This document shows, piece by piece, positions 41,819-56,375 of a stretch of DNA of 56,927 bases (position 1 is the first letter of the stretch; each line of letters begins with the position of its first letter). The notes under the pieces are model-generated. The model was given only the letters and a program-made list of their open reading frames with translations. It did no database searches and was not told the origin of the DNA. The position numbers were made by a program, and so were the translations under genes. Source of the stretch: a virus; IMG/VR virus record IMGVR_UViG_3300045988_096557. The stretch is one strand, 5' to 3'.

Positions 41819-41824
41819 TCTTAT

Positions 41825-41853
41825 TTGATTAATTTATTTAAAAATGTTATAAT
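41825..41853 (+). promoter_or_regulatory. Sigma-70-like promoter: TTGATT, 17 bp, TATAAT.
   Basis: TTGATT 41825-41830, spacer 41831-41847, TATAAT 41848-41853. It is divergent from the late operon promoter. Confidence 0.55.
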
Positions 41854-43572: not shown

Positions 43573-44340
43573 ATGAAACGAGAAGAGCTCAAACAACACG
43601 CGCAATCGCATTACGCAGACATTAAAGTGAGACTCAGGGAAGATACAGATCGCGCAATTATAAACTCTGAAATTTTTGGCCCCAATCTTCCTTTTCCGCA
43701 AAAACCGCGAGAAACCCACCATAATACCTTTTATCTTAAAGACCAAGATAGTGTATCCTGCCTATTCGGTTTAACCGATCGGAGCAAGACTGCGATCTTA
43801 AATTATGCAAGCTATAAACATCCAGGTGGTTATTTCCTTGGAGGTAGCTCTGCACAAGAAGAGGCATTGTGTCACGAAAGCAACCTTTATCCTATTCTTC
43901 TTGCTTTTGATGATACTTATTACGCATGGAATAGACAGAGACTGAATCGAGCCCTATATCTTGATAGAGCTATCTATACTCCTGATGTAGTCTTTGAAAA
44001 AGACGATAGTAGAAAATTAGCTGATGTAATTACTTGTGCTTCTCCTAATTATAGAACAGCACATACTTATCAGCAAGTTCCTCTTTCTCTAAACAATAGG
44101 ATAATGGAAGAGAGAATTAATTTTATGTATCGAATTGCCGAGGTTAAGGGAGTGGAAAATTTAATCGCGGGAGCCTGGGGCTGTGGTGTTTTTATGCAAG
44201 ATCCATCAACGGTCGCCACCTTGCTCGTAAACGCAGCCCGCAATTATAATATTCCAAATATCTATTTTGCGATTCCAAACCGCAATTCCCGCAATTTTAG
44301 AATTTTCTTGGAGGTTTTGGAAAAATGTTCAAGCAATTAA
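43573..44340 (+). CDS. Macro domain protein of the bacterial PARG-like / DUF2263 type, 255 aa.
   Basis: Signature HPGGYFLGGSSAQEE (the GGG-x6-8-QEE PARG motif) and a LIAGAWGCGVF block. Ribosome-binding site AGAAAGGAA, with an ATG at 43573 in frame with the listed ORF. Confidence 0.65.
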   Translation: MKREELKQHAQSHYADIKVRLREDTDRAIINSEIFGPNLPFPQKPRETHHNTFYLKDQDSVSCLFGLTDRSKTAILNYASYKHPGGYFLGGSSAQEEALCHESNLYPILLAFDDTYYAWNRQRLNRALYLDRAIYTPDVVFEKDDSRKLADVITCASPNYRTAHTYQQVPLSLNNRIMEERINFMYRIAEVKGVENLIAGAWGCGVFMQDPSTVATLLVNAARNYNIPNIYFAIPNRNSRNFRIFLEVLEKCSSN

Positions 44341-44762
44341 TTATTGCGAGGCGAGACTTAAATATGTCTCCAGGGAAACTTGCCGCACAAGTTTCCCATG
44401 CTTCTATTGCTTTTCTTTTGGAAAAGTTATATTGGGGAAGTAAAGAAGTTGTTAAAGAAAGAGACGGTCTTATGTATCATATAGGAATAAGCCTCGATAG
44501 AGACTTATTCCATAATTGGATAGCGGAAGCGGAGACCAAAGTAGTTTGTAGAGCGAAGAATAAGAATGATTTGTTAAAGGCTGTTAAGATAGCAGAAGAA
44601 TTAGGATGGGAAGAGAATAAGGATTATTGGCTTATCTATGATGCTTGTAGAACAGAGTTAGAACGCGAAGGCCCGGAAGGGACTTTGACGTGTATTGGAT
44701 TTAGGCCAATGGAGGCGGAAGAAATTGACAAAATTGGGAAGAAGTATCAGCTTTATAATTAA
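44325..44762 (+). CDS. pth2: Peptidyl-tRNA hydrolase, PTH2 family, 145 aa.
   Basis: Motifs RRDLNMSPGKLAAQVSHASIAF and a C-terminal CIGFRP...IDKIGKKYQLY match the PTH2/Bit1 signature. It overlaps the macro domain gene by 16 nt. Confidence 0.7.
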   Translation: MFKQLIIARRDLNMSPGKLAAQVSHASIAFLLEKLYWGSKEVVKERDGLMYHIGISLDRDLFHNWIAEAETKVVCRAKNKNDLLKAVKIAEELGWEENKDYWLIYDACRTELEREGPEGTLTCIGFRPMEAEEIDKIGKKYQLYN

Positions 44763-44967
44763 TATAGTTTTGATTTTACTATTGTTGACTGCTTGCGTGG
44801 AGGAGAACAATCGCTATCCAAGGCTAGAGTATATTCCTACAATGTGGAGATCTGATGCGATTAATATTAAACTAGAGGATGGATATATCTTAAAAGGATA
44901 TGAAACGATAGAAACTGAGGATGGATATAATTTGATTTTTAGTTTTGAGGCAACCGACGATGGATAA
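44695..44967 (+). CDS. Putative lipoprotein (lipobox LLTAC). The start is uncertain and it overlaps the pth2 3' end.
   Basis: A hydrophobic signal peptide followed by Cys. Confidence 0.35.
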   Translation: MDLGQWRRKKLTKLGRSISFIINIVLILLLLTACVEENNRYPRLEYIPTMWRSDAINIKLEDGYILKGYETIETEDGYNLIFSFEATDDG

Positions 44968-45103
44968 AGTATTAGTATGGTTTGACGGCAAGCATTATTA
45001 TAATATATGCGCAGTCTGTGGAGAATTATATCCAATTTACAAAGTAGAAGATCATATTATATATAATTTAAAAAAGAAGTGTAAATGCGGAGAGAAGAAG
45101 TGA
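44957..45103 (+). CDS. Small zinc-ribbon protein (CxxC...CxC), 48 aa.
   Basis: ATGGATAAAG overlaps the previous stop. It has two Cys pairs and ends at TGA 45101-45103. Confidence 0.3.
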   Translation, partial: TMDKVLVWFDGKHYYNICAVCGELYPIYKVEDHIIYNLKKKCKCGEKK

Positions 45104-45125
45104 GTTCTTCTCTCTTTTCGTTATT
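45091..45125 (+). terminator. Rho-independent terminator candidate.
   Basis: AGAGAAGAA...TTCTTCTCT stem followed by a T-rich tract. Confidence 0.4.
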
Positions 45126-45389
45126 GAGATTGAAAAGTCGATTTAGATTTTGAAATGGCGTGGCAGAACGATTTTACAAAAAAATTTCCAGTTTTTCCCA
45201 AAATACACGCCCCTCTTTCACATGGTAAAGTATTGAAGTGTAGTTGGCCTCTTTCACTCGTTAAAGTACGAAAGCAAGAAAGCACGCCCCCCTAAAGGAA
45301 TACGCGCGCGTAAAGGATTTGTGCAAACTGCACAACAAGATGTTATTTATTTTGTGCAAAAGAGAGAGAAAGAAATTTCAAAAAAACTA

Positions 45390-45418
45390 TTGACAAGTGA
45401 GCATTTTGGTGGTAAACT
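45390..45418 (+). promoter_or_regulatory. Sigma-70-like promoter with an upstream A-tract (TTGACA-17-TGGTAAACT).
   Basis: TTGACA 45390-45395, spacer 45396-45412, TAAACT 45413-45418 preceded by TGG. The upstream tract AAATTTCAAAAAA is UP-element-like. Confidence 0.5.
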
Positions 45419-45486
45419 GGACTTGTCCAGTAGGACAGAGACAAAAGCACGGCACTTTGAAAATTAAAAAAATTTCAAAAAAGGTA

Positions 45487-45515
45487 TTGACAAACTGCTA
45501 AAGGTTTGATACAAT
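45487..45515 (+). promoter_or_regulatory. Consensus sigma-70 promoter with an upstream A-tract (TTGACA-17-TACAAT).
   Basis: TTGACA 45487-45492, spacer 45493-45509, TACAAT 45510-45515. The A-tract element matches that of the previous promoter. Confidence 0.55.
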
Positions 45516-45568
45516 ACAGACAGAACAAAAGAGAACCACACCACAAAAAGAAAGGGAGTCAAAAGAGT

Positions 45569-45943
45569 ATGAAAAAGATTGATTTTACCAATGAAGATCG
45601 AGCCATTATTATGGAGTATATGGCCGCTAAGATGGCTAAGTCTGCGGCGGAGGCGGCGGAGAAAGCAGCTAAGGCTAAGGCTAAAGAGCTATTCTCCAGA
45701 TTAGGTAAGGCTTTTAAGGCTACGGACAAAACAAGTTATCTATATGGCACGGTACAAATGCAGGGTAAGGCGAAAGCGGTGGTATATAAAGAAACTACCG
45801 CAAAAGGAACGGTTGACTGGAAAGCCTATGCTATGGCATTAGGCGGGACAGAGGCCGAAGCAGAGCAATTCCGCAGACCTTCCGATGTTCGTACCTCTTT
45901 TGATTGGGCGACAAAGACCCAAGAAGAAGAAATTAGAGGATAA
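45569..45943 (+). CDS. Hypothetical early protein, 124 aa (possibly Gp157-like).
   Basis: Ribosome-binding site AAAGGGAG, with an ATG at 45569 in frame with the listed ORF 45506..45943. Confidence 0.5.
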   Translation: MKKIDFTNEDRAIIMEYMAAKMAKSAAEAAEKAAKAKAKELFSRLGKAFKATDKTSYLYGTVQMQGKAKAVVYKETTAKGTVDWKAYAMALGGTEAEAEQFRRPSDVRTSFDWATKTQEEEIRG

Positions 45944-45954
45944 CAGTTTATAAA

Positions 45955-45995
45955 CCCTGCCTTGCAAAACACAAGGCAAGGCAGGGTTATAATAA
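45955..45995 (+). terminator. Rho-independent terminator.
   Basis: CCCTGCCTTGC...GCAAGGCAGGG, an 11-bp stem, followed by TTATAATAATT. Confidence 0.5.
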
Positions 45996-46017
45996 TTAAA
46001 AGAAAGGGGCATACTAT

Positions 46018-46164
46018 ATGTATCAGTTACAAGTTTTAGCCAATGAGAAAATGCGCTATTATGAACCATCCACCCTTTCAATGGCAAGATGGAAGGTCAG
46101 TCACGAGATAGTCAATCCTAATCATTGGATTGTGGATTTATCCAGTGGAGAAATCGTAGATTAA
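46018..46164 (+). CDS. Small hypothetical protein, 48 aa.
   Basis: Ribosome-binding site AAAGAAAGGGG plus ATG, ending at TAA 46162-46164. Confidence 0.35.
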   Translation: MYQLQVLANEKMRYYEPSTLSMARWKVSHEIVNPNHWIVDLSSGEIVD

Positions 46165-46210
46165 AAAGAAGCTGACCTAACGGCTATACGGGGAGAAAGG
46201 ATAAAAGACT

Positions 46211-46513
46211 ATGAACAATTATATTAAGTGGTTCGTTGGGCCTACTTTTAGAAAGCGTGAATTTATTAAACTTTTGCGGTATAAGATGAATGTGCGTTCC
46301 GCAGAGGTAGAGGACGGCATCATCTTAGACCTGGATGCTTTTAATGCCATGCGAGTGGCCTATATGCCACACTGGGCTTATATCAATAGAAAGTTTATCA
46401 ATAGCAATCTGCATACCAGAATTGCAAGCGAAGACGAATATAAGGTTGCTATGGTCGGAGATACAATCGGTACTGAATGGGTTAAAGAACAGGAGGCAAA
46501 GAAATGGAAATGA
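46211..46513 (+). CDS. Hypothetical protein, 100 aa.
   Basis: Listed ORF with a ribosome-binding site GGAGAAAGG. Confidence 0.55.
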   Translation: MNNYIKWFVGPTFRKREFIKLLRYKMNVRSAEVEDGIILDLDAFNAMRVAYMPHWAYINRKFINSNLHTRIASEDEYKVAMVGDTIGTEWVKEQEAKKWK

Positions 46514-46656
46514 GAATTATTAAGCGGATAGGAGGCGGCATTTGTGCCGCTCTCCTACTCTGGGCAGTTCTTAGTTGGGCTGATATAGTGGCGGATAACT
46601 GTGAGCCAAACCCACAGCACAGCGAATATAATATGTTCGTTCTCATGACTAAATAA
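46504..46656 (+). CDS. Small membrane peptide, 50 aa.
   Basis: Overlapping ATG with a hydrophobic core GGGICAALLLWAVLSW. Confidence 0.35.
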   Translation: MEMRIIKRIGGGICAALLLWAVLSWADIVADNCEPNPQHSEYNMFVLMTK

Positions 46657-46669
46657 TAGGAGGAAAAAA

Positions 46670-46903
46670 ATGTATAGAGGGACTTATATCGACGCCATGG
46701 GCCGCAAGCGCAGAGAGATGGGATATTTCAGTCTTAATAAGCCCACTCTGAATAAACTCCATATACCAGTAATTGTCCAAGCGAGAGATAAGACAAGTGC
46801 GGCGAATAAAATCAATAGGAAATATAAGTTGCGTATAAGTCCCAGCAATCTACGGGAGGTGCCGATGGGCACAGGCTATCTCATGGAAACCATGGAGCTG
46901 TAA
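46670..46903 (+). CDS. Hypothetical protein, 77 aa.
   Basis: Listed ORF with a ribosome-binding site AGGAGG. Confidence 0.55.
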   Translation: MYRGTYIDAMGRKRREMGYFSLNKPTLNKLHIPVIVQARDKTSAANKINRKYKLRISPSNLREVPMGTGYLMETMEL

Positions 46904-46914
46904 AGGAATAAAAA

Positions 46915-46953
46915 TGACTGGCAATCTGCACAAAGATTGCCAGTCATTTTTAT
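46915..46953 (+). terminator. Rho-independent terminator.
   Basis: TGACTGGCAATC...GATTGCCAGTCA stem followed by TTTTTAT. Confidence 0.6.
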
Positions 46954-46975
46954 GCACTTTTCCATATTGACTTTT

Positions 46976-47116
46976 CGCCGGGCCGCCAGCGTGCGCCGCG
47001 GCCCAAATTTTTATTTATCCGGCAGTTTCAACAATTATATGATCGAAAGTCTGTGCAATTCGACAAAAGATTTTCTCCCGAAATTACTTGACATTCCTCT
47101 TGTCATGTGTTATTAT
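46976..47116 (+). repeat. Early-region intergenic cassette, copy 1: GC-rich hairpin, AAATTTTT, TTTCAACAATT / TGTGCAATT half-sites, and promoter TTGACA-17-TATTAT (47088-47116).
   Basis: Motifs read directly from the sequence. The same architecture recurs at 6 further sites. Confidence 0.6.
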
Positions 47117-47170
47117 ATACTTGTCCAGAGGGACAAGGTCACAAAAAGAATTTGAAAGGAAGTAAAAGAA

Positions 47171-47410
47171 ATGACTTTGAAAATGATTGCAGGTCTGCTT
47201 TCTCCGCTCGCAGAAGATACCATGTTCTTTGACGGGGAAGGGGTCGAAATTATCAATGAGAATACTCAAGCTCATTACCATGAGCTACCTGATCACAAGA
47301 TAACCCTGGGAGGAGACGTCATTGAGGCGTCTAAGGAATGGGTGCTGGGACTTCCGGTAACTGGCATTAAAGCAAGAGGCAACAATCTAATCATTTATGT
47401 AGATGGTTAA
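47171..47410 (+). CDS. Hypothetical protein, 79 aa.
   Basis: Listed ORF with a ribosome-binding site GAAAGGAAG. Confidence 0.55.
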   Translation: MTLKMIAGLLSPLAEDTMFFDGEGVEIINENTQAHYHELPDHKITLGGDVIEASKEWVLGLPVTGIKARGNNLIIYVDG

Positions 47411-47473
47411 GAAAACCTGCGGGAGTGGAGGTTTATGGCCTCCACTCCCCACGATAAAAAAGGAGAAATAAAT

Positions 47474-47689
47474 ATGATTGCTGTTATTAAATTTGAAAGT
47501 GCAGAAAAGTCTGTGGAGTTTGGAAACACAATTTGTAATATGGCTGGTTGGTGTTTGAGTCATCCTCTCAATTCCAATGTTACCGGCTGTGTTCGTACGC
47601 TTGATTTTAATGCCGGCGACAAGCAAGATAGAGCCTTATATAATTATCTGCTAAAAATTGGAGCTTTCGAGGAGGTGGAATTAAAGTGA
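47474..47689 (+). CDS. Hypothetical protein, 71 aa.
   Basis: Ribosome-binding site AAAGGAGAAA, with an ATG at 47474 in frame with the listed ORF 47435..47689. Confidence 0.5.
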   Translation: MIAVIKFESAEKSVEFGNTICNMAGWCLSHPLNSNVTGCVRTLDFNAGDKQDRALYNYLLKIGAFEEVELK

Positions 47690-48095
47690 GTATTGAGCGT
47701 TTACCGCACACATATCCCATTGGCTCCACTGTTTGGACAAATAAGGGATATGGCACAGTTCTACTTCACATTGGTAAATACCATCTGGTTTGGTTACAGA
47801 GATTAGGGTTGGCGTAATGCCGGCCCTATTGATTTTTTCAAAAAAATATATTATAATAATTATAGAAAAATAAAGAAAGGAGTTTTTCTAATGACCTTAG
47901 AAGTGCTGAAAGCATTCGTGGTTATTTTGGAGTTCTGTTTGAACTAGGATTCTTGTAAAAATTGTCCTATGTCTCAGTTCTGCCAGAAAATGCCTTGCGA
48001 GTGGTAAATGTTCCTTCCGATTGTTCTAAATCGGCGATTCCCGTGATGGAGTCGTTTTTCGCACGAGCCTAGGTCACTAGAATTTATTTATCAAA

Positions 48096-48329
48096 ATGCA
48101 AGAAACTACTTTCTCTCGCAAATTAGATTCAAGTGGTAGAATTATGATTCCGATTCGCTTGCGTGAACAAATGGGACTTACTTCCGGTTAGGAATACTAT
48201 TTTACTACTATGGTAAAAGATGGTAGAAAATATATCTGTATTGACTGCGGATCGGTTGATTCCTCGCTTGAAGAAGCTATGAAAATTATCCAAGCAAACG
48301 GATTAAAGATTGTTGAAAATGCCGATTGA
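48096..48329 (+). CDS. Small AbrB/SpoVT-N swapped-hairpin domain protein, 77 aa, with 1 in-frame TAG (48189).
   Basis: SRKLDSSGRIMIPIRLREQMGL matches the AbrB N-domain and is paralogous to the N-terminus of the protein encoded at 49554..50015. Confidence 0.45.
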
Positions 48330-48371
48330 CTTCTCAAAAGAAAGGGAGTTGTTGGTATGCAGAAATTAATG

Positions 48372-48403
48372 ACCTCCTGAAATTCAGGAGGTTCTTTTTT
48401 TTT
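48372..48403 (+). terminator. Rho-independent terminator.
   Basis: CCTCCTG...CAGGAGG stem followed by a T9 run. A 7-codon mini-ORF (ATG 48357) ends inside the stem. Confidence 0.6.
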
Positions 48404-48410
48404 ATTCGTT

Positions 48411-48551
48411 CGCCCGGCCGTGCACCACAGGCGCGGCCGGAATTTTTTATCAAGAGGCAATTTGCACAATTTTAGGCTCGAATTGTTGTGCAATCTGACG
48501 AAAGATTTTTTCCTAAAATCGCTTGACTTTCTGCTTTGCCTATGGTATATT
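48411..48551 (+). repeat. Early-region cassette, copy 2: GC-rich hairpin, GAATTTTTT, TTGCACAATTTT...TTGTGCAAT dyad, and promoter TTGACT-17-TATATT (48523-48551).
   Basis: Motifs read directly from the sequence. Confidence 0.6.
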
Positions 48552-48604
48552 ATTATCAGAAAGAGGGAGACAGAAACACCTCGAAAGAAAGGAAAGAAAA
48601 AATC

Positions 48605-48862
48605 ATGGAAGAAAAGAAAATGATTTTGGTCACGGACGGATACGACGATAAACCTATCTGCGTAGCGTCTAATACCATCGCCGCCCGCAAGTCTGCGTTG
48701 GATTATCTGGAAAATCAATATGACGATGGAGAATGGGAGGCTATTCTGGAAGAAGATGGATATAAAAATCGTGATGACCTTTTCCATGATATGATGTTAG
48801 GCATGGAAAGCGAATGGGAGCGTTTCAATATTAACTTTGCGGAAGTTTCCTTTGCGGGGTGA
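48605..48862 (+). CDS. Hypothetical acidic protein, 85 aa.
   Basis: Ribosome-binding site AAAGGAAAG, with an ATG at 48605 in frame with the listed ORF. Confidence 0.5.
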   Translation: MEEKKMILVTDGYDDKPICVASNTIAARKSALDYLENQYDDGEWEAILEEDGYKNRDDLFHDMMLGMESEWERFNINFAEVSFAG

Positions 48863-48866
48863 GTAT

Positions 48867-49019
48867 ATGACAACTTTTACCATGATAATTCTGATTGCTT
48901 TTGTTCTGTGTCTGGTATGGCAATTTGTAGCCGCTATTGAAAAAGATTGCATAGGACTTGAAATCATGTTTGCGGCGGAAATCTTAATGTTCGCATATCT
49001 TGCAAAAACTTTGATGTAA
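48867..49019 (+). CDS. Small membrane protein, 50 aa.
   Basis: ATG 48867 with a hydrophobic core. Confidence 0.4.
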   Translation: MTTFTMIILIAFVLCLVWQFVAAIEKDCIGLEIMFAAEILMFAYLAKTLM

Positions 49020-49024
49020 GGGGT

Positions 49025-49053
49025 TGACAAATCGCCCCAACTATGGTACAATA
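49025..49053 (+). promoter_or_regulatory. Consensus sigma-70 promoter: TTGACA-17-TACAAT.
   Basis: GGGGTTGACAAATCGCCCCAACTATGGTACAAT. Confidence 0.55.
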
Positions 49054-49114
49054 AGACCATGGAAGGGACGACCCCGATAAATAAAAATTAAAATTAAGAA
49101 AGGAAGTTTTGGAA

Positions 49115-49501
49115 ATGCGTGTTAGTAAGGTTGTTCGGGAGTATATTGAAAAGGAAGTTGGAGTAAAGGCTGAAATCAAGAGGCAGGCTGTCCATGAAAC
49201 CTTTTCCGCTTATGAGACAGAGTGTAAAATCATGCAGGAGAAAGTTAAGCAGGCGGTAAAAGCCCTTAACGACGAACTTCTTTCGGAGGTTAAAAACAAG
49301 GGGATGAGTTTCCGCAGATATAATGACCGGCTGGTAGAGGCTTGCCAGGATTGTATTTACCCCGCTATGGAGAACGAGAAGAAAAAGGCCATGCGGGAAG
49401 TTAGCGACTGGGAGAAAAATGCCGTAACGGAAATTATTCTTACGCTTGAGTTGGGTGGTACTAAAGCTGACCTCGAACGGATGTTGAAAGAACTGGATTA
49501 A
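49115..49501 (+). CDS. Hypothetical protein, 128 aa.
   Basis: Ribosome-binding site AGAAAGGAAG plus ATG 49115, in frame with the listed ORF 49109..49501. Confidence 0.55.
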   Translation: MRVSKVVREYIEKEVGVKAEIKRQAVHETFSAYETECKIMQEKVKQAVKALNDELLSEVKNKGMSFRRYNDRLVEACQDCIYPAMENEKKKAMREVSDWEKNAVTEIILTLELGGTKADLERMLKELD

Positions 49502-49513
49502 GAAGGGAGGAAG

Positions 49514-49544
49514 GGAGTGCAAGACTATAAATCTTGCACTCCCG
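49514..49544 (+). other. Perfect 12-bp stem-loop (GGGAGTGCAAGA...TCTTGCACTCCC) in a 5' UTR, with no T-tract.
   Basis: An inverted repeat seen directly. A related hairpin beginning GGGAGTGGAGG lies at 47417-47447. Confidence 0.4.
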
Positions 49545-49553
49545 CAGATAAAA

Positions 49554-50015
49554 ATGAAAGCTACTGGAATTGTGCGCCGTATTGATGATTTGGGCCGGAT
49601 AGTAATTCCAAAGGAAATCCGTAGAAACCTTCATATTAGAGAAGGCGACCCATTAGAGATTTTTCTTGAAGAAGATGGCGGCGTAGTTTTTAAGAAATAT
49701 TCTATAATGGGAGAATTTTCCTCTTACGCTAAACAAATGCAAAATGCCCTTTCATCTAACGGAATCGCCGCGGCTATTTTTGACAATGATGGAATTTTAT
49801 GCGGGCCGCGTTCCTTTGGAATTACAAGAGTTCCCGATGACTGGATTGATATTCGCAGTTCGGCGACAAAATGGGAAAGTATGTTTATTACACCAATTCT
49901 TGTGAATGGCGACCAGGTTGGTTTTATTTGCTATAAAAATAGCAATAACGAAGAATCTGTCCATGACATGGTTAAACTTTCTGCAAGATTTCTTGCAAAT
50001 ATATGTGAAAGTTAA
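49554..50015 (+). CDS. SpoVT/AbrB-family transcriptional regulator (AbrB N-domain plus a GAF-like C-domain), 153 aa.
   Basis: The N-terminus GIVRRIDDLGRIVIPKEIRRNLHIREGDPLEIF is a near-canonical SpoVT/AbrB swapped-hairpin domain. The overall length and a C-terminal domain of about 100 aa resemble SpoVT. Confidence 0.6.
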   Translation: MKATGIVRRIDDLGRIVIPKEIRRNLHIREGDPLEIFLEEDGGVVFKKYSIMGEFSSYAKQMQNALSSNGIAAAIFDNDGILCGPRSFGITRVPDDWIDIRSSATKWESMFITPILVNGDQVGFICYKNSNNEESVHDMVKLSARFLANICES

Positions 50016-50040
50016 AAGAGGGCTTCGGCCCTCTTTTTTA
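50016..50040 (+). terminator. Rho-independent terminator (AGAGGGCTTCGGCCCTCT followed by TTTTTT).
   Basis: A GC stem with a T-run. The same stem sequence recurs at 50909 and 52303. Confidence 0.65.
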
Positions 50041-50064
50041 TCCCATTTTTTGAATAGGCTTCTC

Positions 50065-50182
50065 GGCGGCGCGCTAACGTGCGTGGCGCGCCGAATTTTC
50101 TCTTTTGTAGAAGTTGCACAATTTTCCAGCCGAAATTTTGTGCAGTTTGCCTCTTGTTTTCTATCCCGAAATCTGATATACT
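50065..50182 (+). repeat. Early-region cassette, copy 3: GC-rich hairpin, GAATTTT, TTGCACAATTTT...AAATTTTGTGCAG dyad, and promoter TTGTTT-17-TATACT (50154-50182).
   Basis: Motifs read directly from the sequence. Confidence 0.55.
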
Positions 50183-50214
50183 TTAATCAACCTAAAGAAA
50201 GGAAGTAAATCAAA

Positions 50215-50679
50215 ATGAAAAAGATGCTCTGCTTTGATATGGATGGAACAATCGCTGACCTGTACGGCGTGGATGATTGGTTAAAAGATTTAATGAATGA
50301 AAATCCCTATCCATATACAGTCGCCAAACCTCTTTGCGATATAGAAGAATTGAATACCGTTCTTAATAAACTCATTGAGCAGGGCTGGGAAATTCGGGTT
50401 ATCAGTTGGCTTGCAAAAGACAGTTCTAACTCATATAAAACTGCTGTTCGTGACGCAAAGCGCATTTGGCTTGCAAAATACAACTTCCCCGCACATAAAG
50501 TCCACCTTGTGGAATATGGCACAACAAAAGCAAATTGTGTGCGGAAACACTTTGAGCCGGGAATTAGCAATTTCATTTTGATTGATGATAATAAAAGTGT
50601 GCGGGATGGCTGGCATTTAGGGGAAACAATCGAGCCACATGAAGATTTACCTACGGCCTTATGGCGACTGGTAGAGTAA
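50215..50679 (+). CDS. HAD-superfamily 5'(3')-deoxyribonucleotidase-like hydrolase, 154 aa.
   Basis: N-terminal HAD motif I CFDMDGTIADL, and an LIDD motif near the C-terminus. Confidence 0.55.
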   Translation: MKKMLCFDMDGTIADLYGVDDWLKDLMNENPYPYTVAKPLCDIEELNTVLNKLIEQGWEIRVISWLAKDSSNSYKTAVRDAKRIWLAKYNFPAHKVHLVEYGTTKANCVRKHFEPGISNFILIDDNKSVRDGWHLGETIEPHEDLPTALWRLVE

Positions 50680-50719
50680 TCCACCAGTCAATCTTAAAAT
50701 AAGAAAGGAAGTTTTGTAA

Positions 50720-50908
50720 ATGAAGATTAGAAAGGTTAATAGGCTTATCCTCAGCGAGGAAGAGCGACAAGTATTGAAAAATGCGTCCATTCTCATTGGT
50801 CAAATTGATCAGGTTATGGCCGACAATGAAATTGATGACGATATTTCGCTTGAAGATTTGAGCTATTGGCTTGACGAGATTATCAATAAAGAATATCTTG
50901 GATATTAA
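50720..50908 (+). CDS. Hypothetical acidic protein, 62 aa.
   Basis: Listed ORF with a ribosome-binding site AGAAAGGAAG. Confidence 0.5.
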   Translation: MKIRKVNRLILSEEERQVLKNASILIGQIDQVMADNEIDDDISLEDLSYWLDEIINKEYLGY

Positions 50909-50932
50909 GAGGGCTTCGGCCCTCTTATTTTT
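50909..50932 (+). terminator. Rho-independent terminator (AGAGGGCTTCGGCCCTCT followed by TATTTTT).
   Basis: A GC stem with a T-run. Confidence 0.6.
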
Positions 50933-50952
50933 ACTCTTTAATATCGTTTGGG

Positions 50953-51069
50953 CGGCTCGCTGGCGCACGCGGCGAGCCGAGTTTTTGTTTTTGTCGATGT
51001 TGCACAATTTTGGCTTGCAAATTTTGTGCAATTTGCCATCTTGTAATTATCCCGAAAGTATGGTATTAT
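50953..51069 (+). repeat. Early-region cassette, copy 4: GC-rich hairpin, AGTTTTT, TTGCACAATTTT...AAATTTTGTGCAA dyad, and promoter TTGTAA-17-TATTAT (51041-51069).
   Basis: Motifs read directly from the sequence. The downstream leader of about 160 nt has only a tiny RBS-led ORF. Confidence 0.55.
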
Positions 51070-51232
51070 ATATTTGTCAAGAGGGGAAGGCCAAGAAATC
51101 AAGAGGTCGCGAACTCTTAGAAAGTAAAGGAAGTAAATTTATATTGTGTCGTAAGTCGAGTGAACGCCGTTAGAATAGGCCGTTCTAATGCCCAGTAGCT
51201 TGCAGTAAATCGCAATAAAAATTTCCTTTTCC

Positions 51233-51261
51233 TCTTGACATCAAGCATGATATGTGCTATA
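51233..51261 (+). promoter_or_regulatory. Consensus sigma-70 promoter: TTGACA-17-TATAAT.
   Basis: CTCTTGACATCAAGCATGATATGTGCTATAAT. Confidence 0.55.
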
Positions 51262-51295
51262 ATAAACTCAACAAGAGGAAAGGAAGTCAAAGATT

Positions 51296-52087
51296 ATGAT
51301 TGATAAGCGTAGACACTATGTTTTGGTGGTTGATACTGAAACTGCTAACACACTGACTGAAACTGACGAAAACGGCAAAGCCCGCATGGATATGAGTTGC
51401 GTTCTTGTCTATGATTGCGGATGGGCGGTAGTGGATACCAAGGGCAATATTTATGAAACTGCCAGTTTTGTAAATAGGGACATTTTCAACGATGAGCGGG
51501 ATCTCATGCGGACTGCTTATTATAATTGGAAAATTCCCCGCTATATTGAGGAACTGCGGGCCGGCACTCGTAAAATGGCTACCACTTATGAAATCCGCCA
51601 AGCTATGCTCAATACCATTGAGCGATACGGCATTAAGGAAGTTGCGGCTTATAATGCCAGATTTGACGATAATGCCTTGAGAGTTACACAGCGTTATGTG
51701 ACCTACTCCAAGTGGCGTTATTGGTTCCCGTTTGACAGCGTGGAGATTTGGGATATTATGAAGATGACACAGGATGTTATCTGCAATATGCCCACTTATA
51801 AGAAATTCTGTCAGGAAAACGGATATGTCCAGGCTAATGGTGTCCCCCGCAAGACTGCGGAAATCGTATGGCGGTATATCTCCGGCAATAATGAGTTTGA
51901 GGAAAGCCATACGGGATTGGAAGATGTGCTGATTGAAGCGGAAATTATGTGGTATTGTATGCGACAGCACAAGCCCATGAGAAAAGCTCTTTATGAGAAT
52001 AGGAAGGAATTTCCTCCCATGACCGATTTTCAGAGGCGGCTTTCCGCAAGTTTGAAGAATAATCCGACAATCCGGGTTGGGGCTTAA
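51296..52087 (+). CDS. DEDDh-family 3'-5' exonuclease (DnaQ-like), 263 aa.
   Basis: Exo I motif VLVVDTETAN, the Exo II region, and an Exo III motif HTGLEDVLIEAEI. Confidence 0.6.
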   Translation: MIDKRRHYVLVVDTETANTLTETDENGKARMDMSCVLVYDCGWAVVDTKGNIYETASFVNRDIFNDERDLMRTAYYNWKIPRYIEELRAGTRKMATTYEIRQAMLNTIERYGIKEVAAYNARFDDNALRVTQRYVTYSKWRYWFPFDSVEIWDIMKMTQDVICNMPTYKKFCQENGYVQANGVPRKTAEIVWRYISGNNEFEESHTGLEDVLIEAEIMWYCMRQHKPMRKALYENRKEFPPMTDFQRRLSASLKNNPTIRVGA

Positions 52088-52115
52088 AGCCCCGCCCGGT
52101 AGAAAGGACAGAGAT

Positions 52116-52298
52116 ATGAGAACTGAAAAAATTTGGTTCGACTTTATGAACGCCGATTGCCAATATCAGGCAAGAAAGGTCATTGAGCGAATGGGATGGA
52201 CTATTGATGAAAATCTCGATGGCGATGGCGGCTATCCTGTTCATTTCCCCGAAGAGGATTTAGGACTGTTTGAATTTCTTGATATATGCTGGTCATAA
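52116..52298 (+). CDS. Hypothetical acidic protein, 60 aa.
   Basis: Ribosome-binding site GAAAGGACAGAG plus ATG 52116, in frame with the listed ORF 52077..52298. Confidence 0.45.
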   Translation: MRTEKIWFDFMNADCQYQARKVIERMGWTIDENLDGDGGYPVHFPEEDLGLFEFLDICWS

Positions 52299-52302
52299 AG
52301 GA

Positions 52303-52328
52303 AGGGCTTCGGCCCTTCTTTTTTATAC
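52303..52328 (+). terminator. Rho-independent terminator (GAAGGGCTTCGGCCCTTC followed by TTTTTT).
   Basis: A GC stem with a T-run. Confidence 0.6.
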
Positions 52329-52341
52329 CTCGAAAAGTCAG

Positions 52342-52501
52342 CGGCCCGCGGATGGCTGACGCGGGCCGAATTTTTCAATGGTAATGTTGCACAAAAATTT
52401 CGCCCCGTTTTTGTACAAAATTCTGCACAAAAACTTTCTCCCAAAATCCTGATTTTTTGTGCAATTTGACGCTTGCAATCTGTTTCCACTTGTGTTACAA
52501 T
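52342..52501 (+). repeat. Early-region cassette, copy 5: GC-rich hairpin, GAATTTTT, four TTGCACAA / TTGTGCAA-type half-sites, and promoter TTGCAA-17-TACAAT (52473-52501).
   Basis: Motifs read directly from the sequence. Confidence 0.55.
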
Positions 52502-52571
52502 ACTATCAGAAAGTGAGAGAGACGAACGGCAGACAGCGACAGCGAACTTTCAGAAATCTTTCAAAAACCCC

Positions 52572-52860
52572 TTGACAAGCCTTTGCAAGTGTGATATAAT
52601 CATTACAGAAAGCAAGGCAAGGCACCTTGAAAATTTTCAAAAAAAGACTTGACAAACCGCCTTGAATGTGCTATACTAAAGGCGTAAAGAGGAAAGCCAA
52701 ACGGTTTTGAAACGGCGAGTAGCGACAGTCAAAAAAGTTTGAAAAACCTCTTGACAAACGCAAGAAGTTGTGGTACAATAAAGGCACAGTAAAGGTTATA
52801 GCATACCAGTCCCGGTTGAGAGAAAAATCTCTTGACAAACGGAAAAAGGTATGATATAAT
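52572..52860 (+). promoter_or_regulatory. Array of four tandem consensus sigma-70 promoters, each with an upstream TTTCAAAAA / TTTGAAAAA A-tract and an extended -10: P1 52572-52600, P2 52649-52677, P3 52751-52779, P4 52832-52860.
   Basis: Each is TTGACA, exactly 17 bp, then TATAAT / TATACT / TACAAT / TATAAT with TGn upstream. Confidence 0.6.
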
Positions 52861-52906
52861 AAATACATCAAGGGTGACGACCTACCGTCAGAAAGGAAGT
52901 ATCATT

Positions 52907-53308
52907 ATGAGCGAGAAGAAAGTCCGTATCACTAAGGCCCAGCGTTTCGAGGACATCAAGGCCCTTCTGAATGGCGACCCCGTGACATATGGCACGACCC
53001 CGGAGATTGCGGTCACTGTTATTGACCATGAGCTGGAGCTTCTGGCGAAGAAGAACTCTGGTAGCGGCGATAAGAAGTTGACCCCGACCCAGCAGGAGAA
53101 CGAGGCGCTCAAGGAGCAGATTGTGGAGTACCTGTCCACTCTGCCCGATGACACCGATGGCGTGACCTGCACGGAGATTTTGAAGTCCGTGCCTGCCCTG
53201 ACTGATTTTAGCAATCAGAAAGTGGCGGCTCTGGTGCGTCAGCTCAAGATGGCCGGCCGTGTCGTGGCTACGGAGAAAAAGGGCAAGTCCCTGTTCCGTA
53301 TGGCCTAA
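52907..53308 (+). CDS. Hypothetical protein, 133 aa, GC-rich, with a possible winged-helix C-terminus.
   Basis: Ribosome-binding site GAAAGGAAGT plus ATG 52907. Markedly higher GC than the flanking DNA. Confidence 0.55.
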   Translation: MSEKKVRITKAQRFEDIKALLNGDPVTYGTTPEIAVTVIDHELELLAKKNSGSGDKKLTPTQQENEALKEQIVEYLSTLPDDTDGVTCTEILKSVPALTDFSNQKVAALVRQLKMAGRVVATEKKGKSLFRMA

Positions 53309-53343
53309 CCCCGATAGGGCGGGGTGAAATATCCCCGCCCTAC
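53309..53343 (+). terminator. Stem-loop / terminator candidate (AGGGCGGGG...CCCCGCCCT).
   Basis: A 9-bp GC stem. A similar hairpin lies at 53771-53797. Confidence 0.4.
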
Positions 53344-53414
53344 TAAATAAGAAAAGGGGTGATACCATAAGTAGCAGAATTACGGATGCCGAGCGGATCG
53401 CAAGGTATAAGGGC

Positions 53415-53765
53415 TTGAACCTATCCCCGCAAGAGGAAAAGGATTTACTTGCCTATGATAAGGCCGTTGAAGCGGGGGGGCGGACGCAGTATGACCTCCC
53501 CCCGGATAAGGCAAAAGTAGCGCAGAAATTCGCCCATGCGGGAACACGGAAAGCGCCCACCGCCTACAAGTTTACGCCCCGGCAGAGAAAACCCAACGCA
53601 ACTAAAGGGGGCATTATCGCAGAGCTTGCAGAGTTTCTGGAAAAGAATAGTCAGTTTTCCATTGTAAATCTGCAAGTCACCAACAAGGAACGGCAGATAG
53701 CCTTTTCTATTGGTGAGGACAGTTTCGAGTTGACGCTTGTGCAAAAGCGAAAACCGAAGAAATAA
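53415..53765 (+). CDS. Hypothetical basic protein, 116 aa, GC-rich (TTG start as listed).
   Basis: Listed ORF. No strong ribosome-binding site. Confidence 0.4.
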   Translation: MNLSPQEEKDLLAYDKAVEAGGRTQYDLPPDKAKVAQKFAHAGTRKAPTAYKFTPRQRKPNATKGGIIAELAEFLEKNSQFSIVNLQVTNKERQIAFSIGEDSFELTLVQKRKPKK

Positions 53766-53843
53766 CCGGGATAGGCGGGATACCGTCTATCCCGCCTCCC
53801 AAAAGGAAGTGATACTATCCGCCGTGAGAAAGAGTTTCTGTAT

Positions 53844-54164
53844 GTGGGGCATTATGTGGACACAAAAGGCCGTTATATCCTGAAAATAGGAACGACAAAC
53901 GACCTAAAGCGCAGAGCCGCAGAGCATACAAGGAATTACAAGAAAACCCGTGAGTTTACCATGCCGGAAAATTCCTGTTTTGTCTATGACTGGTGGCGTC
54001 CTCTTTCCAAGTATAATACTTTGAGATATGAGGACGCAAACCGGGCAAGATGGCAAGATATGGGAATTGGGCGTTTCATCAGGAACGACAGATTTTTCTG
54101 TGAGAAAAAACCTGACATGGTAACAATTACCATTCGCAAAACCTATACTATCCCGCTGGCATAG
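53844..54164 (+). CDS. GIY-YIG nuclease domain protein, about 106 aa, GC-rich. The start is uncertain and the gene ends with TAG.
   Basis: GHYVDTKGRYILKIGTTNDLKRRAAEH resembles the GIY-x10-YIG...R...E motif. Confidence 0.45.
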   Translation: MGHYVDTKGRYILKIGTTNDLKRRAAEHTRNYKKTREFTMPENSCFVYDWWRPLSKYNTLRYEDANRARWQDMGIGRFIRNDRFFCEKKPDMVTITIRKTYTIPLA

Positions 54165-54180
54165 TCCAGCGGGATTTTTT
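54140..54180 (+). terminator. Rho-independent terminator (TCCCGCTGG...CCAGCGGGA followed by T7).
   Basis: A stem with a T-run overlapping the gene's 3' end. Confidence 0.6.
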
Positions 54181-54204
54181 TCGTCATTTTGCACAAAAGC
54201 CCTG

Positions 54205-54324
54205 GGCGGCGCGTTTGCGGTTGCAACGCGCCGAATTTTTCGTTTACTAGTAATTTCAACAATTTTATCGGAAAAAATCGGTACAAATCGTTTAATTGAC
54301 TTTTCCCGAATTTCATGTTATAAT
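54205..54324 (+). repeat. Early-region cassette, copy 6: GC-rich hairpin, GAATTTTT, degenerate half-sites, and promoter TTGACT-17-TATAAT (54296-54324).
   Basis: Motifs read directly from the sequence. Confidence 0.55.
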
Positions 54325-54349
54325 AGAAGAAACAAAGGAGGAATTTAAA

Positions 54350-54964
54350 ATGATTTTTGATTTAGATTAGTTACTTGAGTTTTTTCATGCGTCTAAATCT
54401 ACCGTTACAACAAATTTTCCTAAATTTGCTTCTAATCAAGCTAAAAAAGGATATTTAATTACTAAATAGGGAATTGGCAAAGAAGCAACTTATGAAGTAG
54501 AAAAAATTACACCTAAATATATTGATCCTTCAAACTTTTCTAATCGAAAGATTGAAATCGCAGAGTCTCTCCCCGGAGAAATTTGGAAGACTACTTATTG
54601 CTCCAATAAGCATGAAGTTTCCAATCTTGGTAGAATAAGACGAAAAGATAATAAAACATTGATTAAAGGATCAATGACCTCAGACGGATATTTAAAAACA
54701 GAAATAATAAGAAATACTCCCCTCAGAATCCATCGAATTGTAATGCAAACTTTCAATCCTATTGAAAATTTTGAAACTAAAGTAGTAGATCACATCAATG
54801 GAGTTAGAACAGATAATAGACTTGAAAATCTACGTTGGGCCTCCCCAGAAGAAAATACTCTCTTGATGTTAAAAAATCGAGAGGAAATTACTCGTGAAAC
54901 TACTAGACTTATAAATAAGTATGGATATGAAAAAACGCTTGAATTAATTCAAGCAATACCTTGA
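54350..54964 (+). CDS. HNH homing endonuclease (NUMOD4 plus HNH), 204 aa, with 2 in-frame TAGs (54368, 54467).
   Basis: GEIWKTTYCSNKHEVSNLGRIRR...DGYL...HRIV...VDHINGVRTDNRLENLRWASPEEN is a classic HNH_3 motif set. Ribosome-binding site AAAGGAGG. The listed ORF 54659..54964 extends upstream in frame across two TAGs. Confidence 0.65.
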
Positions 54965-54968
54965 TATT

Positions 54969-55640
54969 CGGCGGGCCGCGCAGGGATGTGTCGGCCCGAA
55001 TTTCCCCGATCGGACCATAGCGCAAAATTTTCATAGCAACTTGGCCATAACGCAACTTCATAGCAATTTTCCCAAAATTCATAACACCCTCTTCCAAACA
55101 CCGATCGGCCCTACTTTACTTCTTCCTTTATCTAGTTCCGATCGGTCCAGCAATATTGGCTCTCTCGTCCAATTTTTTATAATAAAAATCTTAAAATTGT
55201 CAAGTATTCACAGTACCAAAACTTTCTAAAATACAACTAGCAATAGCAAAGATATAGCTATGAAAAACAAATACGACCAGAGATTTCTTTCGCGGAACCG
55301 ATCGGTTTAACACGATTTTATGATAAAAAATAGCTCAAAAATAGAGATTTTAGCTAGATAAACCGATCGGCCCGCGATCTTTTACCTCTTGTTATCGCAA
55401 AATATAACAAAAAACCTCTAAAATCTTGCAAAAATGCGCGTTTTTCTAACAAATTTACTTAAAAATAAGCAAAAAATGCCTCGTTTTTCTCAAAATTTCT
55501 TGATATTCACAGAATTAAAACCATTAAAGATACAGCAAACAATAGTAAAGATGTTGCTAACTATTTGAAAAGGAAAAATCTTTTCCGCGGGATTCCGTTA
55601 AAGCGATCTTTTTATCTAGACCCGATCGGTTCGACAATAT
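54969..55640. other. AT-rich non-coding region rich in repeats: a partial cassette (copy 7) hairpin, five CATAGCAA-like direct repeats, six CCGATCGG palindromes, and two 26-bp direct repeats. Candidate replication origin or partition site.
   Basis: CCGATCGG occurs at about 55006, 55100, 55137, 55297, 55362 and 55621, and again at 56316. No ORF of 60 aa or more is credible here. Confidence 0.45.
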
Positions 55641-55736
55641 ATAAAAAATATAATATAATATATACATAAGATAAAGAAAAGGAGGATTTTAGTTTAAGAA
55701 GCATCATAACGCTTTTTCTAACTAAAAGAACTTATT

Positions 55737-56192
55737 ATGAATAGTTATGAGATTATGATTCGTGATGCAATGCAGAATGGTTCTACTCAGGAGGAGATTG
55801 CAAAGGCATTTACTGATGCTATGAATAGAATCTCCGAGGCTAACGCCGCAGACCATGAACGAGATATTCTTCTGGATGAGATTGAGTCTACTTTTTATGG
55901 CAATGTTGATGATTTGTCTCTCACTGAGGATGACGTTGGTCGTGTAGCTGCGCTGGTTTATAGCAAGAGCAATCCTAAGTGGACAGCAAATGATATTAAG
56001 CAGTTTATGCAGGCTATGACTGTAACTGCTAAGACTTCCGCTCGAGTAGTCAATGCAAAGAGTCTTGATGAAGTAATTGACATTGCTGTTGACTCTATTT
56101 CTGATGCTCTCGCAAAGAGTGTGCCTCAGGTTAAGGGTAATACTAAGTCTGATGAAGATAGTATTATGGAGTTTTTGAAGCATTTAAAGTAA
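55737..56192 (+). CDS. Hypothetical acidic protein, 151 aa.
   Basis: Listed ORF ending at TAA. Confidence 0.5.
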   Translation: MNSYEIMIRDAMQNGSTQEEIAKAFTDAMNRISEANAADHERDILLDEIESTFYGNVDDLSLTEDDVGRVAALVYSKSNPKWTANDIKQFMQAMTVTAKTSARVVNAKSLDEVIDIAVDSISDALAKSVPQVKGNTKSDEDSIMEFLKHLK

Positions 56193-56211
56193 CAAGAGGA
56201 AAAAGATTAAA

Positions 56212-56245
56212 GGAGAGAGAAGTATTGTAGCTTCTCTCCTTTTTT
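56212..56245 (+). terminator. Rho-independent terminator (GGAGAGAGAAG...CTTCTCTCC followed by TTTTTTAT).
   Basis: A stem with a T-run. Confidence 0.6.
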
Positions 56246-56375
56246 ATATATATTATAATCGCGGAAGGCTAGGTTTACGATCGTTGTGACGAGTGTTGTG
56301 ATGGTTCGTACCTAGACCCGATCGGCACCCAACTCCATCATTTTATAAACTTCTTTTAATTTCCTTTAATTTCTT

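Follow-up and report, generated by a model that had tools for sequence, protein, structure and literature searches.

A repeated intergenic cassette of hairpin, dyad and predicted promoter in the early region of a TAG-recoded phage

The cassettes and the block that carries them

The IMG/VR virus record IMGVR_UViG_3300045988_096557 (56,927 nucleotides, called the window here whenever the whole stretch is meant) carries at 42-55 kb a plus-strand block that encodes small proteins, a nucleotidase-like and an exonuclease-like protein, two AbrB-like proteins, a T5orf172 protein and an HNH endonuclease, and in this block one composite element recurs between the genes. The element, referred to below as the cassette, joins a GC hairpin and T-run to a 32-bp dyad and a sigma-A-type promoter sequence (Table 1). 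It is real, conserved and apparently undescribed, a search of the literature having returned no published account of it, and we think it probable that it serves as an insulated, co-regulated early transcription cassette which doubles as a recombination linker.

The window belongs to a TAG-recoded phage. When TAG is read as sense, the coverage of the minus strand by open reading frames (ORFs) of at least 150 amino acids rises from 9.2 kb to 43 kb, and 102 in-frame TAG codons lie within a single ORF of 2,914 amino acids; the late minus-strand genes occupy positions 3400-42000. The plus-strand block has a GC content above that of the rest and is almost free of TAG, in-frame TAG codons being seen there in three genes, namely a small Cys-rich ORF, the AbrB-like g10 and the HNH endonuclease gene g22. 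No suppressor tRNA was found in the 57 kb of the window. The large terminase has relatives in the Enterococcus phages H1, VRE9 and EF1, in Geobacillus virus E3, distantly in SPbeta (YonF) and in the human-gut phage Phass-1, which is classified under 'Caudoviricetes code 15 clade' and for which Clostridia are the predicted hosts (PMC10607447). The genome paper on the Phass-1 clade is silent on transcription signals and mentions neither promoters nor terminators, repeats or hairpins (PMC10607447). Megablast of the 8-kb region against GenBank phages gave no match, and distant blastn searches with one cassette gave chance matches only. Likewise, no Rfam family reached its gathering score in the window, where a terminator hairpin produced only chance microRNA-like matches with E up to 1, and a tRNA scan yielded nothing relevant to the cassettes.

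Table 1. Positions of the cassettes, the neighbouring terminators and selected genes of the early block in the window.
Feature	Position	Strand	Details
Cassette 0	45329-45418	+	No GC hairpin; dyad CTGCACAA-N16-TTGTGCAA 45329-45360
Cassette 0, predicted promoter	45390-45418	+	TTGACA-17-TAAACT; long class, 68 nt from dyad centre
Conventional terminator hairpin before cassette 1	46908-46953	+	Bidirectional-looking
Cassette 1	46979-47116	+	Long class; hairpin 46979-47005; degenerate dyad 47027-47058
Cassette 1, box and predicted promoter		+	TCCCGAAA 47076-47083; TTGACA-17-TATTAT 47088-47116
Genes with in-frame TAG	47891-48007, 48096-48329, 54350-54964	+	
Conventional terminator before cassette 2	48371-48393	+	
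Cassette 2	48414-48551	+	Long class; hairpin 48414-48440; perfect dyad 48462-48493; predicted promoter TTGACT-17-TATATT 48523-48551
g14, SpoVT/AbrB-like protein	49554-50015	+	Own hairpin-embedded consensus promoter 49024-49052
Conventional terminator before cassette 3	50017-50040	+	AGAGGGCTTCGGCCCTCT and T-run
Cassette 3	50067-50182	+	Short class; hairpin 50067-50093; dyad 50114-50145
Cassette 3, predicted promoter		+	-35 TTGTTT 50154-50159; TCCCGAAA in spacer; -10 TATACT 50177-50182
Conventional terminator before cassette 4	50908-50930	+	AGAGGGCTTCGGCCCTCT and T-run
Cassette 4	50953-51069	+	Short class; hairpin 50953-50979; perfect dyad 51000-51031
Cassette 4, predicted promoter	51041-51069	+	TTGTAA-17-TATTAT; TCCCGAAA in spacer; followed by GTCAAGAGGGG leader
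Conventional terminator before cassette 5	52301-52325	+	GAAGGGCTTCGGCCCTTC and T-run
Cassette 5	52342-52501	+	Composite; hairpin 52342-52368; dyad 52387-52418; predicted promoter TTGCAA-17-TACAAT 52473-52501
g20, unannotated 132-aa protein	53367-53765	+	
Conventional terminator before cassette 6	54150-54180	+	
Cassette 6	54207-54324	+	Short class; hairpin 54207-54233; degenerate dyad 54255-54286 (TTCAACAA...CGGTACAA)
Cassette 6, predicted promoter	54296-54324	+	TTGACT-17-TATAAT; TCCCGAAT in spacer; upstream of HNH endonuclease gene, predicted to drive it
Cassette 7	54972-55006	+	Truncated terminal copy; hairpin 54972-54998 and AATTTCC tail

A first-pass annotation of the window had listed seven such sites. 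All seven are present at the positions given, and they represent copies of a single modular element. The half-site sequence TTGCACAA occurs 11 times in the window against 1.8 times expected, with every copy falling within 45.3-54.2 kb, whereas the box TCCCGAAA, taken alone, shows no enrichment there and matters only through its position within the cassette. In a scan of the whole window with a cutoff of 80% GC, slightly above the value of copy 6, intergenic GC-dense hairpin blocks followed by AATTT were met only at the reported sites. When a model was built with nhmmer from six cassettes and the remaining one was searched for in the 56.9 kb, the omitted copy was recovered at E = 1.8e-18 (cassette 1), 3.2e-13 (cassette 2), 3.7e-20 (cassette 3), 1.3e-12 (cassette 4), 1.2e-11 (cassette 5) and 1.6e-13 (cassette 6), cassette 7 was recovered at E = 2e-4 through its hairpin and tail region only, and no unrelated position in the 56.9 kb reached E < 0.01. 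These profile searches contradict the possibility, raised in the annotation itself, that the elements are no more alike than random AT-rich DNA.

Several details of that description had to be revised. The shared architecture holds for cassettes 1-6 but not for cassette 7, which has neither dyad nor promoter. The half-sites at 45330-45360, which had been taken for extras, do exist but are not stray; they belong to an eighth, hairpin-less copy, cassette 0, which carries a CTTGTCCAG leader resembling that of cassette 1. A conserved motif at +1 is seen in some cassettes only and is not general, and of three AT-type terminators thought to share an identical stem just two carry AGAGGGCTTCGGCCCTCT, the third being GAAGGGCTTCGGCCCTTC. 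The box TCCCGAAA, which was said to lie often in the promoter spacer, is indeed found there in cassettes 3, 4 and 6, that is, in the short class. In the long class (cassettes 0, 1 and 2), however, it lies upstream of a displaced promoter, ahead of the -35 in cassettes 1 and 2, and in cassette 5 it stands between half-sites, a second pair of which (52423-52430 and 52457-52464) flanks TCCCAAAA. Its distance to the dyad is constant in every arrangement. The closing pair of the cassette 1 hairpin is broken in the window and intact in the related loci L010 and L011. Directly after the cassette 1 dyad stands TTCGACA (47059-47065), which we take to be the reverse form of the Bacillus Spo0A box; L011 and L002 have TTCGACG or TTGACG in the same place.

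Conservation of hairpin, dyad and promoter

About 40 IMG/VR contigs of 80-240 kb carry the cassette, as does Phass-1, a gut phage with a deposited genome. Searching IMG/VR for the dyad returned 11 loci on contigs of 22-188 kb, and in all 11 the parts follow in the same order: a conventional terminator, the GC hairpin with its T-run, the dyad, and a promoter with TCCYGA in its spacer. A further 80 loci came from a scan for homologues of the AbrB-like gene, and some 30 of these have several dyads and hairpins. In the complete genome of Phass-1, nine of the 11 half-sites and all four dyads, one of them perfect, lie inside one 8-kb early block. The cultured relative Enterococcus phage H1 lacks the cassette. 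The element thus exists in many related phages, and given this conservation across the clade a phage-wide regulon of early transcription units, which the first-pass annotation had proposed, is the natural reading.

The geometry of the cassette was taken from a non-redundant set drawn from many phages. The hairpin measures 27 nt and is all GC; behind it come a purine pair and then a T-run, and 18-21 nt from the hairpin begins the dyad, TTGCACAATTTT-N8-AAAATTGTGCAA, whose length is a constant 32 bp (8+16+8 bp) and not variable through a spacer of 12-16 nt as had been described. Of 34 cassettes, 23 have a -10 hexamer that starts 47-48 nt from the dyad centre; in the others this interval is 68 nt (five), 84 nt (two), 93 nt (three) or 40 nt (one). 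The consensus for the clade reads GCA-N2-TTGCACAATTTT-N8-AAATTTTGTGCAAT-NTGCC-N3-(T/A)GACA-N5-TCCCGAAA-N5-TGnTATAAT.

The hairpin and the dyad are conserved in different ways. In an ungapped alignment of 24 distinct hairpins, compared with column shuffles and with slid partners as controls, 95.8% of the hairpin cells form standard pairs (66.5% in the shuffles, 31-44% with slid partners), two-sided changes are found in 59 cells against 22.5 in the shuffles, and the covariation score is 0.674 as opposed to 0.151. Pairs 1, 6 and 7 are invariant, which gives the pattern C-N4-CG...CG-N4-G, and G.U pairs are scarce (8 of 432 outer pairs in 54 non-redundant copies). The folding energies of the window hairpins lie between -17.6 and -22.3 kcal/mol, and the mean hairpin folding energy is -18.7 kcal/mol. 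The strong covariation shows that the hairpin has been selected as an intramolecular structure, and the earlier suggestion that the hairpins are protein- or RNA-level signals fits such selection. By contrast, 32 dyads treated by the same method show no covariation, since their pairing (72.4%) does not exceed that of the shuffles (73.2%). The half-sites are conserved in sequence instead, with a nearly invariant ACAA...TTGT at a distance of 20 bp between centres, and departures from it are uncompensated. Conservation in sequence in the absence of covariation is the signature of a protein-binding site, and judged by it the dyad appears to be a sequence-specific site of this kind, in agreement with the annotation's view of it as an operator: its half-sites are kept without compensatory change and at a fixed distance from a sigma-A-type promoter.

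As to the role of the hairpin, several features point to termination. The hairpins sit just after stop codons, their stems contain 7-10 G-C pairs, and behind them stand three to six T, always preceded by AA, AG, CA or AT. In an orientation scan 119 hairpins shared one strand and 8 had the opposite one, these 8 being in loci fetched in reverse; the 80 AbrB-anchored loci take their orientation from the gene, and there all hairpins are on the strand of the early genes. Moreover, in 24 of 54 cassettes the hairpin is the sole terminator-like structure past the upstream stop codon. Because of this co-orientation with the genes, the position behind stop codons, the stability, the T-run and the 24 cassettes without another terminator, we infer that hairpin and T-run form a factor-independent terminator or insulator acting on the sense strand. 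A simple scan for terminators called three of the seven as full hairpins, among them 50067-50093, and 52342-52368 as a 5-bp sub-stem only; the loops, at 7-13 nt, are above the usual size for terminators. Attenuation through an upstream copy of the hairpin 3' arm was considered and is not general, such a copy being present in 11% of 54 cassettes versus 4% of controls. It is seen in a few cassettes, among them one orthologous cassette (L001 5090-5150, L003, L004, L005 and L008; L002 10505-10560), in which an upstream GGGCGG can pair with the hairpin 5' arm. This competing pairing begins 8-9 nt past the stop codon of the preceding gene, an arrangement that looks like translation-coupled attenuation.

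For the promoter part, a scan for consensus promoters matched 47088-47116 and 54296-54324 at 11 of 12 positions, 48523-48551 at 10 of 12, and 51041-51069 and 52473-52501 at 9 of 12; all five have a TTGACA-like -35, a 17-nt spacer, a TATAAT-like -10 and a TG extension, and they are predicted to be active as sigma-A-type promoters. With the -10 set at -12 to -7, the dyad centre falls near -60 (short class) or near -80 (long class), in both cases upstream of RNA polymerase, the two positions being two helical turns apart. The -35 of the short class is often weak (TTGTTT, TTGTAA, TAGACA) and paired with an extended -10; non-cassette promoters of the same block have the full consensus and A-rich upstream regions. 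An upstream dyad together with a weak -35 and an extended -10 favours a regulator that acts through upstream contacts, either activating the polymerase or trapping it, in the way of p4 of phage phi29. The arrangement of these sequences therefore leans towards activation or control mediated by the alpha-subunit C-terminal domain (alpha-CTD), simple occlusion being less likely. The combination of TCCCGAAA and GTCAAGAGGG was rejected as a second promoter for a phage sigma-like protein (40718-41833), as its spacing is inconsistent between copies. Beside the cassettes, the window has a compact composite in which the -35 TTGACA lies within the loop of a terminator hairpin (49020-49052 and 45953-45995), and nine copies of this hairpin-loop promoter are present in the cultured Enterococcus phage H1 (L092 5821-12619). 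The phage of the window thus has two promoter classes.

Module shuffling, regulation and competing readings

Cassettes bound indels and rearrangements between close relatives, an aspect absent from the first-pass annotation. The locus L010 corresponds to window 43957-48492 joined to 50111-52118, and its junction consists of the hairpin and left arm of cassette 2 followed by the spacer and right arm of cassette 3, which places the crossover within the shared TTGCACAATTTT. In L011 other DNA stands in place of the HNH module that lies between cassettes 6 and 7, and 97% identity resumes exactly at the cassette 7 hairpin, the loop of which differs. Among the relatives L012, L013, L015, L034 and L074, g5-g7, g16, g18 and g22 are variably present, g15 is placed before g17, between g17 and g18 or after g21, and hairpins are found at every module joint; the order of the modules is rearranged among the last four.

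We suggest that each copy would act as a self-contained boundary between transcription units of standard-code early genes. The hairpin with its purine-purine-TTT(T) tail would stop read-through from upstream, often as a backup to a conventional terminator. The 32-bp dyad would be bound by a dimeric or tetrameric regulator that touches a single helix face upstream of RNA polymerase. A host sigma-A-type promoter, with TCCCGAAA as a second conserved box, would restart transcription for the next unit. Since the cassettes are near-identical repeats of about 150 bp that stand in one orientation between small modules, they also offer portable homology for recombination, by which, as the comparison with relatives shows, modules are deleted, inserted and reordered in a way that would leave their regulation unbroken.

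Several points weigh against this interpretation. The hairpin is over-stereotyped for a terminator, with its fixed 27 nt, invariant pairs, semi-conserved loop and scarce G.U; a purine dinucleotide is obligatory between stem and T-run, some tails have just three T, and a conventional terminator already lies upstream in 56% of the cassettes. Given these stereotyped and atypical features, the hairpin may instead be read by a protein. As an alternative to selection for helical phasing, the 20-21 nt by which the long class is shifted may stem from a second promoter built on the old -10, and recombination at the cassettes could be a passive by-product of the repeats and not a selected function. Nor can a regulator be assigned: Phass-1 lacks AbrB, the fold of g20 is not recognisable, and the search for MrpR-like proteins gave none. 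Finally, termination, promoter activity, protein binding and the direction of regulation are all deduced from sequence.

One candidate for binding the dyad was the SpoVT/AbrB-like product of g14, possibly together with the small AbrB-like g10, which as a single regulator of the TTGCACAA dyads would coordinate the early units. The g14 protein has an AbrB/MazE N-domain (Pfam E = 9.5e-12) and a weak match to SpoVT_C, and its gene is preceded by a consensus promoter of its own. AbrB-family genes lie inside the cassette block in L001, L002, L008, L009, L010 and L011, which are all the dyad-selected loci long enough, and in the cassette blocks of about 30 further loci, although most loci with co-occurring dyads and AbrB genes were ascertained through the AbrB gene. 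A SpoVT-type tetramer with its two DNA-binding modules would suit half-sites 24 bp apart, but we know of no strict palindromic specificity among AbrB-type proteins. What weakens the proposal, and speaks against the first-pass annotation, which had named g14 as a candidate regulator, is that L010 (96% identical) is without g11-g14, which were lost when cassettes 2 and 3 recombined, and nevertheless keeps four dyads, along with the paralogue g10, and that complete Phass-1 has dyads but no ORF with an AbrB domain. The best hit there had E = 3.7 with a profile of 77 sequences, for which the two AbrB proteins of the window, as positive controls, gave 1e-30 and 8e-19. We therefore regard an AbrB-type regulator as a doubtful choice.

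The dyad might alternatively be the site of a transcription factor of the Clostridia host, in which case the early units would read the physiological state of the host. Invariance of the motif across phages in which the early proteins are very divergent or absent, such as Phass-1, is in line with this idea. Exact matches to TTGCACAA-N16-TTGTGCAA in bacterial genomes are mostly from Clostridia assemblies among the matches listed, although the taxon proportions are unreliable, and in about seven of the Clostridia loci listed (L120, L125, L128, L144, L164, L208 and L214) the site is flanked by a divergently transcribed gene for a TetR-family regulator and by a class-III aminotransferase-like gene and is probably the operator of that TetR-family regulator. 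However, the bacterial sites lack the inner TTTT...AAAA tracts of the phage type and the rest of the cassette, 40 of the 123 listed fall inside long ORFs, about 140 matches are expected by chance in the 596 Gb, and no single recurrent regulon emerges from those listed. With sites that are heterogeneous, mostly chance-like and devoid of cassette context, a host regulon was not retained, and a host factor as such is in our opinion unlikely.

Of the early-block proteins compared, the window shares with Phass-1 g4, g15, g17 and, by profile, g20 only. Like the other three, g20 recurs in the cassette-bearing phages where the sequence allowed checking, with two ORFs matching the g20 family profile in Phass-1, and its family comprises 2,869 unannotated metagenomic proteins without a Pfam domain. 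A structural model (pLDDT 77) combines three helices with a basic linker and an alpha-beta-beta-beta unit, and no fold matches it at Z of at least 5. The g20 gene is not always immediately downstream of a dyad. By its distribution only, g20 may speculatively be put forward as an alternative binder. The protein g19 was discarded because it has a weak winged-helix match only and its profile does not reach Phass-1, and a likeness of Phass-1 proteins to g19 and g20 noticed by eye was unsupported by BLASTP.

Other readings give the hairpin a part in recombination itself. It could be, in place of primarily a terminator, a structure-specific recognition site, as single-stranded DNA, cruciform or RNA, for a recombination or processing protein that actively mobilises the modules, in analogy to integron attC sites, whose recognition depends on structure and not on sequence. 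The PeSL authors speculated likewise about their stem-loops (PMC2839356). The likeness to attC is that hairpins stand at the boundaries of gene cassettes and that structure and polarity are conserved while the sequence varies; here this takes the form of a fixed 27 nt, three invariant pairs, near-total Watson-Crick pairing and strict strand polarity. Hairpins also edge the shuffled modules, with homology in L011 resuming at a hairpin with a different loop, partial cassettes directly adjoin hairpins, and an HNH endonuclease gene lies between cassettes 6 and 7. Yet the sole resolvable crossover, that of L010, maps to the dyad arm and not to the hairpin, no recombinase was found adjoining the cassettes, MrpR-like proteins are absent from Phass-1 and the window, and neither target-site duplications nor terminal inverted repeats are found. 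The hairpin moreover keeps a fixed distance from operator and promoter and is followed by a T-run in the manner of a terminator; integron cassettes lack promoters, whereas here the hairpin leads into a T-run and promoter module. No integron integrase and no recombinase was noticed among the annotated proteins, the whole window not having been scanned against integrase models. On balance such a recognition site is improbable.

In its strongest form the proposal would combine a strand-specific hairpin read by a protein with a dyad of 12+8+12 bp, the layout of a recombinase core site, into an active integron-like exchange system in which each cassette brings a regulated promoter. If this were true, shuffling of early host-takeover genes in an abundant clade of gut phages would be catalysed and targeted and not passive, but we consider it distinctly improbable. 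Finally, that the copies are neutral leftovers from segmental duplication of one intergenic region without shared function, as their tandem orientation within 10 kb and 50-80% identity might suggest, is hardly credible when the geometry is kept between deeply diverged phages, with flanking proteins at only 30-60% identity, hairpin pairing is preserved by compensatory change as the sequence turns over and half-sites stay constant while spacers drift.

Relation to known systems and further features of the early block

The insulated, co-regulated cassette favoured here is a promoter-terminator cassette of the kind known from T4-type phages, enlarged by an operator. PeSL cassettes of T4-type phages combine a promoter with a terminator stem-loop and mediate modular shuffling (PMC2839356, PMC4122927), and these elements, described by Arbiol, Comeau, Krisch and colleagues, are the closest functional class. 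Both pair an early promoter sequence of the sigma-70 or sigma-A type, a strong one in the PeSLs, with a stable stem-loop in a short intergenic unit, both recur in one orientation between small non-essential early genes, and both provide homology for recombination that inserts, deletes or swaps the flanked genes. In the PeSLs each module stays transcriptionally insulated, and the same would hold here. They differ in that there is no sequence homology and in lineage, the present phage belonging to a TAG-recoded siphovirus-like Firmicutes clade and not to the T4-type. In addition, the PeSL stem-loop (often GGGG...CCCC) usually overlaps the promoter, whereas the cassette has a separate 27-nt all-GC hairpin about 90 nt upstream, and between the two a strictly spaced 32-bp operator dyad and a conserved spacer box. 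The compact PeSL-style form, with the -35 in the hairpin loop, is found at window 49020-49052 and in phage H1 as a separate promoter class.

A second parallel is SPBRE/MrpR of SPbeta, where a short motif at about ten intergenic early promoters serves one master regulator (PMC10516654). As in the window, a motif is repeated at the early promoters of a large Firmicute phage, and the window terminase is distantly related to YonF. Homology can be dismissed: the 15-bp SPBRE as derived from six SPbeta promoter regions is CAAATAC-AAAWAATATGTATA, which overlaps the core promoter, is unlike TTGCACAA-N16-TTGTGCAA and has no associated GC hairpin. No homologue of MrpR (YopR), a repressor with a tyrosine-recombinase fold, was found with phmmer and tblastn among the ORFs of the window (the 57 kb visible), all ORFs of Phass-1 and all loci, the best E being 0.53. 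The sites of phi29 p4 are inverted repeats with a spacer of about 15 bp that lie upstream of the -35 of sigma-A promoters, likewise in a Firmicute phage, and p4, which is small and dimeric, touches RNA polymerase and thereby either activates or represses. The half-sites of phi29 have another sequence, however, they are not part of a repeated hairpin cassette, and no p4-like protein was identified here.

TAG-recoding phages are abundant in human and animal guts, and no cultured member is known of the clade that carries the cassette. For such phages the cassette gives a testable map of the standard-code early programme, with the starts and stops of its units, the promoters that share one operator and the hairpin-embedded consensus promoters without it, and this map bears directly on the wiring of the switch from standard-code early to TAG-containing late genes. 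The cassette also carries beyond the T4-type phages the view that modular evolution of accessory genes is driven by portable promoter-terminator cassettes, and with an operator in the linker newly acquired genes would join an existing regulon at once. The operator motif and the hairpin signature can serve as search keys for the early regions of these phages in metagenomes.

Some further features of the window were noted in passing. Between cassette 5 and g19, at 52560-52870, stand four tandem TTGACA-17-TATAAT promoter sequences with TG and A-rich upstream regions, and the syntenic place in Phass-1 has two full-consensus promoters; the tandem promoters may give rise to short RNAs or to very strong early expression. 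At g20 (53367) and g21 (53817) strong ribosome-binding sites, AAAGGGGTGATACC and AAAGGAAGTGATACT, stand before ATA and ATC, and with in-frame ATG, GTG and TTG absent nearby this suggests the use of rare start codons. Elsewhere, a reverse-transcriptase-like ORF with a YMDD motif (1067-2284) follows a 164-aa ORF (133-627), and the region 133-2284, which lies beside tail genes, may be a diversity-generating retroelement. In the non-coding DNA after cassette 7 (55006-56325) the palindrome CCGATCGG is present in seven copies, with eight in the window against 0.11 expected. Four CATAGCnnAA repeats (55016-55070) precede this array, with TAAAGTG repeats in the equivalent place in relatives, and the array may be an origin or another protein-binding array.

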